Source: a virus. From it: DNA of 64,000 bases. A program made the position numbers and the translations under genes. Position 1 is the first letter of the stretch, and every line of letters begins with the position of its first letter. This document shows, piece by piece, positions 5,941 to 11,868 of this stretch. The stretch lies in IMG/VR virus record IMGVR_UViG_3300009509_000016; one strand, given 5' to 3'. The notes below the pieces were generated by a model. The model saw only the letters and a list, made by a program, of their open reading frames with translations. It had not been told where the DNA came from and searched no databases.

Positions 5941-7733
5941 AACTATTAGATAAGATAGACAACCTACTTCTTGAAGATAGTATTGTTGATGATTCAGAAC
6001 AAATATTACTAGGAAGTAATACATGGCTTTTTGTAGTACATCCTCTATATGAAGATATTATTTATCCTATTAATACATTTTTGTCAGAAGATGAAAAGAA
6101 CCATTTTCAACTATTGATGGAAATAACTAGAGAGGAAAAGCAAAGAAGGAAAGCACTTTTTAAGGCAGCAAAGCAGAAAGAGCCAGATAGTGAACGTGAT
6201 AAAGCAGTGGAGAAAGCCTTTAATGATATTACAAAGAAATCTAGACAGGCTTTTCATGAACTAGATGAATTGGGTAAAAGATCTTTTATAGCAAAATATA
6301 TTCTGCATGGTTTAGAAAAAACTAGTAAAGATGTTCCATGGGGAAGAGCAGATAGAACTACAAAAGAAATGTATTCAGATGCACTCCAAGGATATAAAGA
6401 GAAGCAAAGATTCGTTAATGATGTAATTGGTATGTACAAAGCCTGGATTGCCCAGAATAAGGAGGGGCATAAAAGATTAACACAAGAGATGAGCAAATTT
6501 AAGAGCCTTGTTGATCTTGAAGCCAGTATCGGTAGGAGCACTGATAGTTTTGTTACCAAGCTCTTTGAATATACTAAAGATAGGTTTGGAAAGGGATGGT
6601 TCCCAGAAGAAGCTTATTTAGAATTTCTTTTTAAGATAAGAACCAAGCAATATAATTCTCTTGCTGAACTGCAAAGTTGTATAAAACAATGGAATGCAAT
6701 TCAAGGGAATACTAAAACAACTTGGTCTGTAGATATATCAACTGTTTGTCCAAAAAGAAAACAATTACTTGATATGATGAAGGATTGGTCACAGGCTCAA
6801 GATGATCTTGCAAAGGCTATAGAAGCTGGAGCAGACAAGGGTATGCTTAGAAAGCTGGAGCAACGTGAAAGACAAATGAGAGTCAATGAAGGCAACAATC
6901 CTACATGCATTTATTGTTATGTGGAAAGTGCAAGAGCAATTGCAGAGAAGAATCCTAAGTTCTTTTTGGCCAAAGCAGAGAAAGAAGGTTTGAGATATCA
7001 AGATACCTTTAAAAACTGGATTCAAAAAGAGAAAGGTGAGTGGGTTAGAGATAGAGAAGGTAATGTAGTTCTTAATAAAGTTGGTAAAAAGAATGTAGAG
7101 CTATTCAATAGAATGGGAGGATTGAGATTTTTTAGTTCCGGTGATTATATTGAAGATCAAGCCACTGATAAAGAAATAGATCGTATCATTGTAGATGCTG
7201 AAGAAGTTGGTCTCCAATTAAAAGCAATAACTAAATCAGAAAAATTTGTAAAGAAATTTGGTGGTAGAACATTTGGTAAAGGACCACTCAGAGGAAGACC
7301 TATTTTTAATATCAATATGTCTGTTGATGAGCAAAGGGGATTTCCTCTTCAAATAGCAAAGTACTATAAGAAGCTTTATCCAGGCAATGTCAATATACGT
7401 GTTGTTGCCTTTAATCCTAAACAGGCAGCAACATATTCCAAAGATCCAGATGTTGATGTTATTACTCTTCTTCATTTTGGTGCTAGGGGAAGAATGCAAA
7501 ATCCAGATCTATATGTTAACATGAGTCCAGGAAGTAAAGGATGGAAACTGGCTATTGATGCTATGAAAGAGGATATTCCAGAAGCAGATGTCAATAAGAT
7601 CCTGTCTAAACTATGCTGTGCCACATCTAAGTGTGAGACATGTCCTAATGCTTGTGGATTCAATCCAAGAAGAGTTGCCGATTATACCCAATTAGCTAAA
7701 GGTGGGAAGAAAGTACTAAAGACAATAGTATGA
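5937..7733 (+). CDS. Hypothetical 598-aa protein with C-terminal Cys cluster
   Basis: Long ORF; N-terminus MKLLDKIDNLLLED (second recurring N-terminal motif); Cys motifs CIYCY and CCATSKCETCPNAC. Confidence 0.7.
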   Translation: MKLLDKIDNLLLEDSIVDDSEQILLGSNTWLFVVHPLYEDIIYPINTFLSEDEKNHFQLLMEITREEKQRRKALFKAAKQKEPDSERDKAVEKAFNDITKKSRQAFHELDELGKRSFIAKYILHGLEKTSKDVPWGRADRTTKEMYSDALQGYKEKQRFVNDVIGMYKAWIAQNKEGHKRLTQEMSKFKSLVDLEASIGRSTDSFVTKLFEYTKDRFGKGWFPEEAYLEFLFKIRTKQYNSLAELQSCIKQWNAIQGNTKTTWSVDISTVCPKRKQLLDMMKDWSQAQDDLAKAIEAGADKGMLRKLEQRERQMRVNEGNNPTCIYCYVESARAIAEKNPKFFLAKAEKEGLRYQDTFKNWIQKEKGEWVRDREGNVVLNKVGKKNVELFNRMGGLRFFSSGDYIEDQATDKEIDRIIVDAEEVGLQLKAITKSEKFVKKFGGRTFGKGPLRGRPIFNINMSVDEQRGFPLQIAKYYKKLYPGNVNIRVVAFNPKQAATYSKDPDVDVITLLHFGARGRMQNPDLYVNMSPGSKGWKLAIDAMKEDIPEADVNKILSKLCCATSKCETCPNACGFNPRRVADYTQLAKGGKKVLKTIV

Positions 7734-8170
7734 GATTTCTAAAATATCTAACAGAGAAATGGGCAGGTTCATTTAAACCTCCAGCAAGAGCAGGAGGTAT
7801 AGCTGAAGTGTTTGTAAATCCAACAAGAGCCGAATATAAAGATGCCCTTGAAGCCAGCAAAGGAAAAGCTATGATGCATCCTCCATCTGCCAGAGCATTT
7901 TATGATCCTAGTTCTGATAAAATATGGATTTGGAGGGGAGATGTTCTTCATGATTCAGTTCTAAGATCAAGATCTGAAATACCAAGTAAAAGTCTAAAGT
8001 TTATTCTAGAGCCTATAACAAAAAGGCTTTTTCTTTATGGGGATGCTAATTTGTCTAGACTTGCTGGTGAGAAGGGAATGAAGGCAATAGAAGAAGTTGA
8101 AAACAAGGCAAGAAAGAAAATTAAAACATTTGCTCCAGAATCTAGTAGCTGGAAGTTGGTGTCAATGTAA
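7730..8170 (+). CDS. CTS-like N-terminus paralog family member (NPT.xE[YF]...WRGDVLH domain)
   Basis: MRFLKYLTEKW...FVNPTRAEYKD...IWIWRGDVLHDSVL; ATGA overlap with upstream gene. Confidence 0.75.
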   Translation: MRFLKYLTEKWAGSFKPPARAGGIAEVFVNPTRAEYKDALEASKGKAMMHPPSARAFYDPSSDKIWIWRGDVLHDSVLRSRSEIPSKSLKFILEPITKRLFLYGDANLSRLAGEKGMKAIEEVENKARKKIKTFAPESSSWKLVSM

Positions 8171-9962: not shown

Positions 9963-10456
9963 GATTTGAGCAATATCTAATAGAAACAGCAGTCAAAAAG
10001 CCTATAGTTTATCATGGTTCATATACAGATAATATTAAAAAATTTTCTACCAAGAGAAGATTAACAGAAACAGGTATTAGACATTTTGGTTCTTATTTTA
10101 CGGATTCTAGAGATATGGCAGAGACTTTTGGTAAGTATCTTTATAAAGTTCAATTGCAGTTTACAAAAATTATTGATATGACTAAATGGCCCCCATTGAG
10201 TGCAGATGATAATTTTATTAAATCATTACCAGGATTGAAGCCACAGGAAATAGATAATTATTTAAGATTTGATTATCGTGGGAAAAATTCTCCATATAAT
10301 GTTGTTGAAACTTTAGATGGAAAATATGATATACTGAAACGATGGAAAAAAATGGGGTATGATGGGATTGCCTTCTGGGAAGAACATTTTAGCAAGAAGG
10401 GAATCACTTATGTACCTTTCTTCCAAAGACAAATAGAAATATTGGAAAAATTATGA
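9959..10456 (+). CDS. Putative PARP/DT-like ADP-ribosyltransferase with CTS-like N-terminus
   Basis: MRFEQYLIE...IVYHGSYTDNI...GIRHFGSYFTDSRDMAETFGKYLY resembles the PARP H-G-S ... GIYFAD...Y motifs. Confidence 0.55.
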   Translation: MRFEQYLIETAVKKPIVYHGSYTDNIKKFSTKRRLTETGIRHFGSYFTDSRDMAETFGKYLYKVQLQFTKIIDMTKWPPLSADDNFIKSLPGLKPQEIDNYLRFDYRGKNSPYNVVETLDGKYDILKRWKKMGYDGIAFWEEHFSKKGITYVPFFQRQIEILEKL

Positions 10457-11868
10457 GACTAACAACTTTCCTTATAAATGAAGCAGCAGAAGCATTGAGA
10501 GATTGGAATAAGTACGTTAAGAGGAATAGAATGCTTGCCAGTGCCGTTATAGTACTTAAGAAAATAGCATCTAAGGGCTATAAAGCTTTTATAGTTGGTG
10601 GAGCAGTACGTGATATTGTGCTTGGCAATCAGCCGAAAGATGTAGACATTGCAACCAACATGCCAATGGATGAACTGGCAAAAATATGGAAAGTTGCCGA
10701 TATTGGTAAGTCAAAAGACTTTGGAATTGTCATAATTAAAGAAGGTGGTACTGTATTTGAAGTTGCACAATTTAGACAAGATGGGAAGTATATTGATGGT
10801 AGAAGACCTGAATCAATTCAGATTGCAGGTTCCTTTAAAGAAGATGTATCAAGAAGAGACTTCACCATTAATGCAATGGGCATTGATGCTGATGGCAATA
10901 TCATAGACTATTTTGATGGAAGGAAGGATATTAAAGATAAAGTTCTGAGAACTGTTGGAGATCCTATGAAAAGGTTCTCAGAGGATAAGTTACGAATCAT
11001 GAGAGCAGCACGTTTCTCTGCTCAACATGGTCTTGATATAGAACCTGCTACACAAAAAGCTGCAAAGAAGTTATCTCAGGACATTACTAAACTTCCTATG
11101 GAAAGAATTAAAGATGAGATATTTAAAGCAGCAAAGCTAGAGGGCAGCAGGTTTGCAGTCTATTTGCAAATTTTAGATCAATTTAAAGTATTGAAGTTTA
11201 TCTTACCGGAGTTAGTAACTCTTAAGTGGATTAAACATGCACCAGCACATCATCCAGAAGCACCTACAGTTTGGGGTCATGTGATGGCAGCACTTAAAGC
11301 CAGCAACACAACAGATCCTATAAAGAATCTGGCAATTCTACTTCATGATGTTGGAAAGACAATTACTCAAGGAGTAAAGGCAGGAGTCCCTACTTACTAT
11401 GGTCATGCAGAAGCAGGTGTTAATTTAGTTAATAGTATAGCTGATAGATTGAGAATGTCTAATAAAGAGAGACAGGCACTTCTTTTTGCAGTAGGGAATC
11501 ATATGAAGTTTCATGATCTATTTAAAATGAAACCATCTAAGATTGCCAAATTGGTTAATGATGAAAATTGGGATGTCTTAGTAGCAGTTGGTCAAGCCGA
11601 TGCATGGGCAAGGGGTCCAGAGTTTAAACATTATAAGAAATGGGAAGAGATGATTGACCATGCTATACAAATCAAAAACAAGTGGGGTATTAATCAAGTT
11701 AGCAAGATTAATGCCATTGTTGATGGTAATCAGATTATGAGACTAACAGGACTCAGGCCAGGACCAAAAATCGGAGAGATTAAAAATAAGATCCTGGAAT
11801 GGGTAGTTGATAATAACATCACTGATCAACAAGAGATAGAAAATAAGATCAAAGAATTAGCTTCCTAG
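10453..11868 (+). CDS. cca: CCA-adding tRNA nucleotidyltransferase / poly(A) polymerase family with HD domain, carrying CTS-like N-terminal extension
   Basis: GGAVRDIVLGNQPKDVDIAT class II nucleotidyltransferase head motif; C-terminal HD region (LLHDVGK, GHAEAG); about 30-aa N-terminal extension MRLTTFLINEAAE. Confidence 0.85.
   Translation: MRLTTFLINEAAEALRDWNKYVKRNRMLASAVIVLKKIASKGYKAFIVGGAVRDIVLGNQPKDVDIATNMPMDELAKIWKVADIGKSKDFGIVIIKEGGTVFEVAQFRQDGKYIDGRRPESIQIAGSFKEDVSRRDFTINAMGIDADGNIIDYFDGRKDIKDKVLRTVGDPMKRFSEDKLRIMRAARFSAQHGLDIEPATQKAAKKLSQDITKLPMERIKDEIFKAAKLEGSRFAVYLQILDQFKVLKFILPELVTLKWIKHAPAHHPEAPTVWGHVMAALKASNTTDPIKNLAILLHDVGKTITQGVKAGVPTYYGHAEAGVNLVNSIADRLRMSNKERQALLFAVGNHMKFHDLFKMKPSKIAKLVNDENWDVLVAVGQADAWARGPEFKHYKKWEEMIDHAIQIKNKWGINQVSKINAIVDGNQIMRLTGLRPGPKIGEIKNKILEWVVDNNITDQQEIENKIKELAS

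Follow-up and report, generated by a model that had tools for sequence, protein, structure and literature searches.

A short N-terminal peptide shared by unrelated genes of an uncultured T4-like phage is probably a capsid targeting sequence

The 64,000-nucleotide stretch of IMG/VR record IMGVR_UViG_3300009509_000016 (hereafter the window) comes from a T4-like phage that has not been cultured, and its sequence is also present in JGI and Logan metagenome assemblies. Nine of its genes start with nearly the same peptide of 9 to 11 residues, followed by proteins as different as a tRNA nucleotidyltransferase and an ADP-ribosyltransferase (ART), which raises the question of what such a peptide does. 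The original prediction, made from the letters alone, saw in it a likeness to the capsid targeting sequence (CTS) carried by T4's internal proteins (IPs), which is removed by the prohead protease gp21. The evidence indicates that this N-terminal tag, together with a longer relative, is probably a T4-type CTS; judged from its genes, the system is best described as a greatly expanded form of the CTS/internal-protein kind known from T4, present in an uncultured clade.

The shorter form of the tag, called here class A, has the consensus M-[K/R]-[F/L]-x-x-[Y/F/W]-[L/I]-x-E and occupies 9-11 residues at the extreme N-terminus. Its core pattern, [KR][FL]xx[YFW][LIV]x(1-3)E after the initiator Met, occurs in 9 of 91 open reading frames (ORFs); at internal positions it was found at 6 of 19,429, so that only about 0.03 N-terminal matches are expected. 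The nine ORFs that had been listed are all present with the peptides read for them (Table 1; genes are named by their lower coordinate); in each, no possible start codon lies between the upstream stop and the ATG of the tag, and the translations confirm that every tag ends in L/I-x-E. The copy of the tag noticed inside the 8643 ORF was also found, in the form SKLEKYLTE. A further candidate, 45248-45499, has an ATGA-coupled start and a weaker match to the pattern. The count of nine was thus right for class A, but too low for the family, since a second, longer tag class (class B) had been missed: class A, class B and the weaker candidate together amount to about 17 of some 80 genes in the window. 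A reading of the tag as a signal peptide or lipoprotein leader was rejected, the peptide being charged and without a hydrophobic core.

Table 1. Tagged genes, tag-like elements, head genes and late-promoter-like motifs of the window (a slash follows the last residue of the leader; aa, amino acids; pI, isoelectric point)
Feature	Position	Strand	Leader or motif	Remarks
T4-late-promoter-like motif	2312-2319	+	TATAAATA	upstream of block 2349-11868
Class-A gene	2435-2959	+	MKFLRYLTE/A	mature part 165 aa, pI 9.4; phrog_16075
Class-B gene	5937-7733	+	MKLLDKIDNLLLE/D	598 aa, no family match; ATGA-coupled to 7730
Class-A gene	7730-8170	+	MRFLKYLTE/K	X domain, NPT..E[YF]...WRGDV.H
Class-A gene	8170-8646	+	MRFLKYLIE/K	paralogue of 7730, 34% identity, 4e-23
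Class-A gene	8643-9962	+	MKFQKYLTE/K	two X domains and an unassigned C-terminal domain
Internal tag copy	9078-9104	+	SKLEKYLTE	residues 146-154 of the 8643 ORF
Class-A gene	9959-10456	+	MRFEQYLIE/T	ART-PolyVal ADP-ribosyltransferase family (PF18760)
Class-A gene	10453-11868	+	MRLTTFLINE/A	CCA-adding tRNA nucleotidyltransferase with HD domain
gp23-type major capsid protein	36078-37295	-		about 37% identical to gp23-type proteins
gp22-type scaffolding protein (T4_CASP)	37318-38139	-	MDLKKILE/MLGVDKLEE	profile match 9e-09
Prohead protease, Peptidase_S77 (T4 gp21 family)	38287-39039	-	MNKQFKLITE	3e-26
Small, very acidic protein	39042-39356	-		T4 gp67/gp68 position, by position and composition only
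Late-promoter-like motif	39377-39384	-	TATAAATA	ahead of acidic-protein/protease/scaffold/capsid operon
Class-A gene	39400-40104	-	MRFKKFLTE/Q	ParB/Srx-fold protein, DGHHR motif
T4-type portal protein (gp20)	40104-41708	-		Portal_T4, 2e-94
Tenth, class-A-like candidate	45248-45499	-	MTKLKEYLLQE/Q	83 aa
Class-A gene	51904-52659	-	MKFREFVSLNE/G	11-residue form; phrog_13953; compare T4 IPI MKTFKEFTS...
Class-A gene	52672-53391	-	MKFEKWLEE/T	no assigned family
Class-B gene	53381-53926	-	MNILRKLERFLNE/A	
Internal class-B-like element	54463-54495	-	SILEKIDNILE/A	residues 47-57 of gene 53923-54633
Class-B gene	55456-56658	+	MSVINKIDFLLGDGFLRE/A	400 aa; TATAAATA upstream at 55254 and 55387
Class-B gene	58008-58421	+	MSRVLEQIDKVLE/P	
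Internal tag-like element	58706-58744	+	NKIIDRLDMYLKE/D	residues 96-108 of gene 58421-59221
Untagged X-domain paralogue (fifth copy)	61890-62282	+	MKLKREVGTDW	aligns with tag, YL.E lost
Class-B gene	62731-63024	+	MKLDILEQIDIYIAE/Q	
Class-B gene	63035-63457	+	MSILEKIDKRLDE/A	ATG after GGGGAG ribosome-binding site
Class-B gene	63460-63777	+	MNILDRIDEQLNE/A	

The shared N-termini might simply be inherited, the carriers being diverged paralogues that arose by repeated tandem duplication and retained their likeness only at the N-terminus; the tandem gene arrays would agree with such an origin. Comparison by BLASTP of the sequences after residue 12 revealed similarity only among 7730, 8170 and both halves of 8643 (E-values from 4e-23 to 1e-4), which, with the degenerate 61890, are true paralogues, and in which the alignment continues from the tag into the domain (MRFLKYLTEKW...NPT..E[YF]...WRGDV.H). 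The remaining six cargos have no BLASTP similarity to this group nor to one another, and ART-PolyVal, CCA/PolyA_pol-HD and ParB/Srx represent different families or folds; in these six genes the likeness is confined to the first 27 to 33 nucleotides (nt), while the 40 nt upstream of the tag starts are unrelated. Since the similarity is limited to 7730, 8170 and 8643, common descent accounts for three of the nine tags but not for the other six. The claim of a transferable tag rather than simple paralogy is therefore upheld at the protein and the nucleotide level, flanking identity past the motif being absent from the six genes; that of unrelated downstream domains stands for the six, but not for 7730, 8170 and 8643, paralogues whose N-terminus was inherited with the whole gene.

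The CCA-adding enzyme provides an independent view of the same point, having about 25 extra N-terminal residues in comparison with bacterial and other phage CCA enzymes. Orthologues of 55-64% identity keep the tag, spelled MRLTQYLIE, MKFLRYLTE, MRLENYLNE or MTRLKKYIVE; phage enzymes at 30-43% identity start 15 to 40 residues nearer the GGxVRD motif, and homologues from cultured phages align, with one exception, only from residue 21-42. Because CCA enzymes outside the clade lack the extension, the tag was added to an existing enzyme. These observations, the 49 unrelated families that bear the tag within the clade (see below), and an X-domain homologue (P0021) in which a class-B-like leader replaces class A, make an origin by duplication very improbable.

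The X domain itself is the most abundant cargo, and no recognisable fold or function was found for it. The 8643 protein seems to have arisen by fusion of two neighbouring tagged genes that were once separate, the second tag having been retained internally; its second half has stand-alone tagged homologues (P0005-P0009), of which P0006-P0009 start with MRLKKYLTEKWIHSTKVRVG, and the internal copy is predicted to be an internal cleavage site. The product of 61890-62282, in which the tag has degenerated, is instead predicted not to be packaged, and untagged X-domain homologues exist elsewhere too (P0004, P0010, P0022). The coexistence of tagged and untagged members recalls T4, where the packaged Alt has the non-packaged paralogues ModA and ModB.

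The spread of the tag was followed in 58 related loci, fetched via the protease and via the CCA enzyme. They contain 130 tagged ORFs, which fall into 49 BLAST-unrelated families once the tag is removed. The 75 unique tags are sharply conserved as far as Glu9, where conservation ends; six Leu codons as well as TTT/TTC are used at position 3, and seven codons at position 7. The use of so many codons for conserved residues indicates that selection acts on the peptide, not on RNA, and bears on the view that conservation lies at the nucleotide level, in a translation-initiation or coupling element or in the boundary of a recombination cassette, the peptide itself having no function. The second codon is in almost every case AGA or AAA, which yields the ATGA permitting the stop-start overlap used by the array, and the shared 27 nt could aid cassette exchange. 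However, besides the codon variety, the substitutions are conservative (F/L, Y/F/W, L/I); the motif is kept internally, where initiation does not occur; [LI]xE lies at a fixed distance from the mature domain despite leaders of 6-126 residues (see below); and 2435, 39400, 51904 and 52672, which have their own Shine-Dalgarno sequence and no overlap, carry the same peptide. A role of the nucleotide sequence as such is thus hardly credible. A deliberately narrow 27-nt pattern of the tag, run on 2.9 million IMG/VR contigs, retrieved 36 stretches; 33 of 35 new loci have a tagged ORF start of this kind, usually adjoined by further tagged ORFs. The densest array seen (L099, IMGVR_UViG_3300002220_000962) has nine class-A and three class-B ORFs in 14 kb.

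In the T4 genome, IPII and IPIII start with MKTYQEFIAE/A and IPI with MKTFKEFTSTTTPVSTITE/A (MKTFKEF...ITE/A), whereas the starts of Alt, gp21 and gp22 are MELITE, MNEPQLLIE and MLKEQLIAE, respectively, and gp23 is cut after SFLTE. Mutagenesis of the IPIII CTS assigned targeting to residues 4 and 7, and processing to residues 8 and 10 (PMC9026906). Phe/Leu3, Tyr/Phe/Trp6, Leu/Ile7 and Glu9 of the tag reproduce the spacing of T4 CTS residues 4, 7, 8 and 10, one residue nearer the Met; the resemblance to the CTS that had been noticed therefore holds at the mutagenesis-mapped positions, in the order aromatic-x-x-aromatic-[I/L]-x-E. Like the CTS of IPI, IPII and IPIII (Mullaney and Black 1996; PMC9026906, PMC3012670), the tag lies at the extreme N-terminus, has about 10 residues, starts with Met-Lys/Arg, has, ahead of I/L-x-E, a pair of aromatic or hydrophobic residues spaced by three, and is carried by otherwise unrelated basic proteins; indeed, the internal proteins of T-even phages are a diverse set whose sole common part is the CTS (PMC3012670). 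Both systems comprise gp20, gp21 (S77), gp22 and gp23 homologues and a capsid protein sharing the cleavage motif; T4 also has two CTS lengths, of 10 and 19 residues, as there are two tag classes here, and some relatives of this phage have 10-mers of exact T4 form. Unlike T4, the consensus is a 9-mer, one residue shorter, and the second class has 13-18 residues; at least 16 genes are tagged per 64 kb, in comparison with three IPs and Alt in the whole of T4; the clade has at least 49 cargo families, recognisable enzymes among them; and tags occur in translationally coupled arrays and internally in fusion proteins, in a system known from genes alone.

A site of the same type is found in the capsid protein, which, when aligned with T4 gp23, has HNYLME/SS at residue 42 (nt 37170-37187), just ahead of the conserved core; maturation cleavage is predicted after HNYLME. 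In 20 related capsid proteins this position is mostly [YFW][LM]xE (NFLME, TYLTE, RWLNE, QYMTE). Since this motif stands at the propeptide boundary, the second half of the tag is the type of site expected to be cut in the capsid protein. The protease starts with M(x)KLITE throughout the clade, LIE being present at the start of T4 gp21, and the scaffold starts with ILE/LLE and KLDE sites.

The position of the cleavage site could be followed best in the product of 39400-40104, encoded between portal and protease, the place of the core proteins gp67 and gp68 in T4. At least 520 homologues of it exist, all of them metagenomic. A sequence-profile search of the PDB gave no match for this family and a fold search was required; it revealed a ParB/Srx fold, and DGHHR matches the conserved DGxHR active-site motif, in agreement with the earlier suggestion of a ParB-like protein at the gp67 prohead-core position. 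The protein is probably a nuclease or NTPase. Among the 101 top homologues that could be anchored, 99 have a hydrophobic-x-E triplet directly before the conserved mature start, (A)GG(E/Q)xxGK(L/M)E; P3 is occupied by Leu in 66 and by Ile in 25, P1' by Ala in 47 and by Gly in 17. Leaders of 6 to 126 residues occur, 9 and 10 being the commonest lengths, and several of those with 10 residues have the exact T4 form (MKTFKSYLME, MKTFTDFLME, MKSFKSYLVE). A fixed [LI]xE behind freely varying leaders behaves as a maturation cleavage site should.

The same data can also be read as a propeptide, removed by the protease and without any targeting function, which would keep potentially toxic enzymes (ART, nuclease) inactive or mark them for protease-dependent activation; head entry, if any, would then be set by other features such as positive charge. 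The cleavage site is the strongest comparative signal, with its fixed [LI]xE and the same motif in the capsid protein, and the leaders that precede it are very different in length and sequence; besides, there is still debate on the role of the two propeptides, N- and C-terminal, of T4 Alt (PMC5694885), and basic charge alone might favour co-packaging with DNA. However, positions 3 and 6 of the tag are conserved as strongly as the triplet, and their T4 equivalents serve in targeting, not in processing (PMC9026906). A gp21-type protease is active only inside the prohead, so its substrates must enter first, and a nine-residue peptide outside the fold is an unlikely inhibitor of unrelated enzymes; in an AlphaFold2 model of the 7730 protein (predicted local distance difference test, 82), disorder extends over residues 1-7 and the folded part sets in near residue 11. 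A propeptide devoid of targeting is thus considered unlikely, and a CTS remains the preferred reading.

The second tag class, found in seven genes of the window, has 13-18 residues and the consensus M-x-[I/L]-L-[D/E]-[K/R]-I-D-x-x-L-x-E (M.ILEKID..L.E). As its last eight residues, K-I-D-x-Y-L-x-E, repeat the class-A pattern R-L-x-x-Y-L-x-E, class B reads as class A plus one helical turn. Clearer versions, MKILEKIDDYLKE, MTNIIEKIDTYLTE and MSDILEKIDGYLEE, are found in relatives on 19 unrelated families. Tag-like elements also occur inside two genes (Table 1). In one of these, 58421-59221, the N-terminal 80 residues match phrog_3503 ('head scaffolding protein', 1.7e-07) and the region past the element matches DUF995 weakly; the protein may belong to the core and be cleaved to give two products. 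For gene 63035, the listed TTG start at 62996 is probably wrong. In the product of 55456-56658, a unit of about 27 residues with much His, Lys and Pro (KSYPGSGKEHFHPDKQDxKIPTKDKGxV) occurs five times in tandem.

A gp21-family protease, a gp22-type scaffold, a gp23-type capsid protein and the portal are all encoded in the window, as is a T4-type large terminase (28889-30496). The gp21 homolog that had been proposed at 38287-39039 was recovered by the Peptidase_S77 profile, and its GELxHPP and SSRGLG blocks align with T4 gp21. It carries a C-terminal CxxC...CxxC zinc-ribbon (residues 209-248) that T4 gp21 (212 residues) lacks; one related locus (L035) matched the protease in this part alone. The scaffolding protein is the presumed docking partner of the tags, and the acidic protein 39042-39356 is a possible prohead-core protein, by position and composition only. 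This head module is of importance for the idea that the peptide is an address elsewhere, to tail or baseplate, membrane, a chaperone or protease of the host, or a common partner for oligomerisation. Three carriers (45248, 51904 and 52672) do sit among tail-fibre-like genes; however, the peptide has no hydrophobic stretch or lipobox and ends in the S77 motif shared with the capsid protein, one tagged gene lies between portal and protease, in the T4 core-protein position, 58421, with its internal class-B-like tag, matches a head-scaffolding PHROG by its N-terminal region, and the T4 precedent is head-specific. An address other than the head is accordingly improbable.

The tagged proteins differ from the other products of the window also by charge: 16 of 17 reach a mature pI of at least 9.0, and at full length their median pI is 9.4, compared with 5.6 among the other genes (Fisher P=3e-6). 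As to their nature, the 9959 product matches PF18760 (ART-PolyVal) over residues 16-159, with E=9.5e-09 and 36.6 bits (cut-off 31.2). The ART-like domains that had been postulated are thus confirmed for 9959, but not for the 8643 C-terminus, where an ART reading is unsupported: this domain has no Pfam match even at E up to 10, and shares with 9959 a 22-residue local match alone (E=0.22). The predicted CCA/HD nucleotidyltransferase was identified in the 10453 product by PF01743 (PolyA_pol, 1.5e-32) and by the RNA-binding domain PF12627 (3.5e-10), the HD domain (PF01966) scoring 21.1 bits, just under the cut-off of 22 (E=3.9e-04); NF009814 matched with 8.9e-73, under the equivalog cut-off of that model, the alignment starting from residue 26, and phrog_2244 with 1.6e-78. 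A match of the 2435 product to a dnd-associated methyltransferase model, far below threshold and restricted to the C-terminal part of the model, was not used. For the ART and ParB-like cargo types, packaging in the head and injection are known or have been predicted (PMC5512222). A Ro60-like TROVE and vWA protein, of the RNA quality-control type, is encoded at 523-2181 (+), a short way upstream of the tagged operon; this protein and the tagged CCA/HD enzyme, taken together, hint at a theme of RNA repair.

In the plus-strand array 5937-11868 the genes are joined by ATGA or TAATG stop-start overlaps. The ATGA coupling described for 7730-11868 was observed at 7730, 8643, 9959 and 10453, the overlap at 8170 being TAATG. 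The motif TATAAATA occurs 14 times in the window, and 6 of the 14 copies fall inside the 7% of intergenic sequence, all facing downstream genes (P=2e-4): they precede the block 2349-11868, the terminase and the acidic-protein/protease/scaffold/capsid operon, and point in both directions at 55.2-55.4 kb, near which further tagged genes begin. A terminator-like hairpin (2250-2266) precedes the copy at 2312, and no further terminator-like site was found in the block 2349-11868. A scan for sigma-70 promoters was uninformative (57 found, 46 expected). Right after the copy at 2312 lies a 29-codon ORF, MAKVGKKAKGQGRRKQGKKKRKAMRKKGR (2349-2438, +), about 55% Lys/Arg, ATGA-coupled to the first tagged gene (2435) and called as a gene in metagenome assemblies too; its product may be a DNA-condensing internal peptide.

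By analogy with T4, we infer the following course, from docking to effector action. The tagged genes would be transcribed late, along with the head genes; an amphipathic N-terminal helix (hydrophobic at i, i+3 and i+4) would dock onto the gp22-type core during prohead assembly on the portal, and the gp21-type (S77) protease would cut after the Glu of [Y/F]-[L/I]-x-E, freeing the mature basic protein inside the head. The mature proteins would remain with the packaged DNA, to be ejected alongside it into the host cell and to act within the first seconds of infection. What they would do there can only be conjectured: ADP-ribosylate proteins, nick DNA or act as NTPases, and repair or mature tRNA 3' ends. 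The broader proposition is a clade-wide cargo-loading system, in which about a fifth of the window genes and dozens of families, including the CCA/HD enzyme and some polyproteins, would be head-loaded, trimmed and injected; this is put forward tentatively, with somewhat less than even confidence.

Several points weigh against this picture. Two of the tags, MRLTTFLINE and MKFREFVSLNE, depart from the 9-mer, and the AlphaFold2 model gives the tag low confidence, so that the helix is a putative one. Targeting, as distinct from cleavage, is argued from the T4 analogy alone. A load of at least 17 cargo species in 64 kb is far above that of T4, and one would not ordinarily expect a tRNA nucleotidyltransferase among packaged proteins. 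No gp55-type sigma factor is encoded in the window, and the late-promoter argument consists of the motif match only. The comparison with cultured phages adds to these points: at the DNA level, the region 7000-12000 of the window matched none of 50,697 deposited phage genomes, the clade having no cultured member there, and tblastn with an X-domain homologue and with the ParB-like protein gave no match in the cultured-phage collection. The best cultured-phage match of the capsid protein, from Pelagibacter phage HTVC008M, has only about 37% identity; no tag enrichment was found in the 50 kb around the head genes of that phage, whose protease starts with MKLITE.

Other known systems resemble this one in part. 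T4 Alt is a head-packaged, injected ADP-ribosyltransferase that gp21 processes at ITE-6 and LTE-619 (PMC5694885, PMC5512222); it shares with the 9959 product the ART assignment, a short N-terminal propeptide ending in [IL]-x-E and the T4-type phage, while the ART found here is a 165-residue ART-PolyVal (PF18760) protein, not of the Alt family, and a C-terminal propeptide is not evident. In the polyvalent proteins and the Dar system of P1, the same domain types, ART and ParB/Srx, occur in effectors delivered with DNA; the N-terminal 30-residue signal of DarB is sufficient for packaging, and ParB domains are DdrB-like (PMC5512222, PMC9024508). However, P1 combines many domains per giant polypeptide, whereas the cargos here are separate small proteins with their own cleavable tags, and the head and protease types of P1 are unlike those of the window. 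The ejection proteins of phiKZ-like phages (SPN3US, 201phi2-1) are processed after x-x-Glu by a T4-related prohead protease, and include many internal head proteins and paralogues with identical N-termini (PMC5694885, PMC7411985); their motif is S/A/G-x-E and most propeptides exceed 100 residues, in comparison with [LI]-x-E and leaders of 9-18 residues here. Encapsulin cargo-loading peptides are likewise short and transferable, and load unrelated enzymes into an HK97-fold shell, but they are usually C-terminal and uncleaved and bind the shell protein directly, neither DNA nor ejection being involved.

Proteins injected with phage DNA act ahead of phage gene expression and are prime candidates for counter-defence and host take-over, and they are hard to recognise from sequence. 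Should the tag work as in T4, its nine-residue pattern would directly flag injected proteins in uncultured phage genomes; in metagenomes it would read like a signal peptide for repertoires of injected effectors, probably anti-defence proteins. Its practical value is that of a sequence handle for candidate injected proteins, at least 49 families being flagged in this way, mostly of unknown function. If so, the internal-protein strategy of T4 can grow to a major share of the genome and carry a tRNA CCA-adding and repair enzyme; with CCA/HD, a tRNA 3'-end repair enzyme would for the first time be brought in ready-made together with the genome. Compared with the T4 10-mer, the 9-mer also provides data from natural variation on the requirements of a CTS, which are of use for the protein-packaging vectors already built on T4.

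Three further groups of genes were observed in the window. Four genes of similar size form a run at 46030-48736 (-), with related N-termini (MAVYTYSISNDFPN, MAQTYIYPVTAFPN, MATYTYSLSADFGN) and, in two of the four, related C-termini as well; the run resembles a tail-fibre or receptor-binding cassette that was duplicated in tandem. Three paralogues at 3497-4270, 59234-60337 and 60559-61704 (+) share the N-terminal block GDIxAQxDxxxEPxGxDFxxxTWRNYP, with diverged C-termini; a Pfam search with them gave no match, and they may be structural or receptor-binding proteins. Finally, between the capsid-side genes and the large terminase, 30531-35460 (-) encodes a complete triad of PrkA (AAA_PrkA and PrkA C-terminal domain), DUF444/YeaH and SpoVR, a phage-borne stress/sporulation module of the bacterial yeaG-yeaH-ycgB type.

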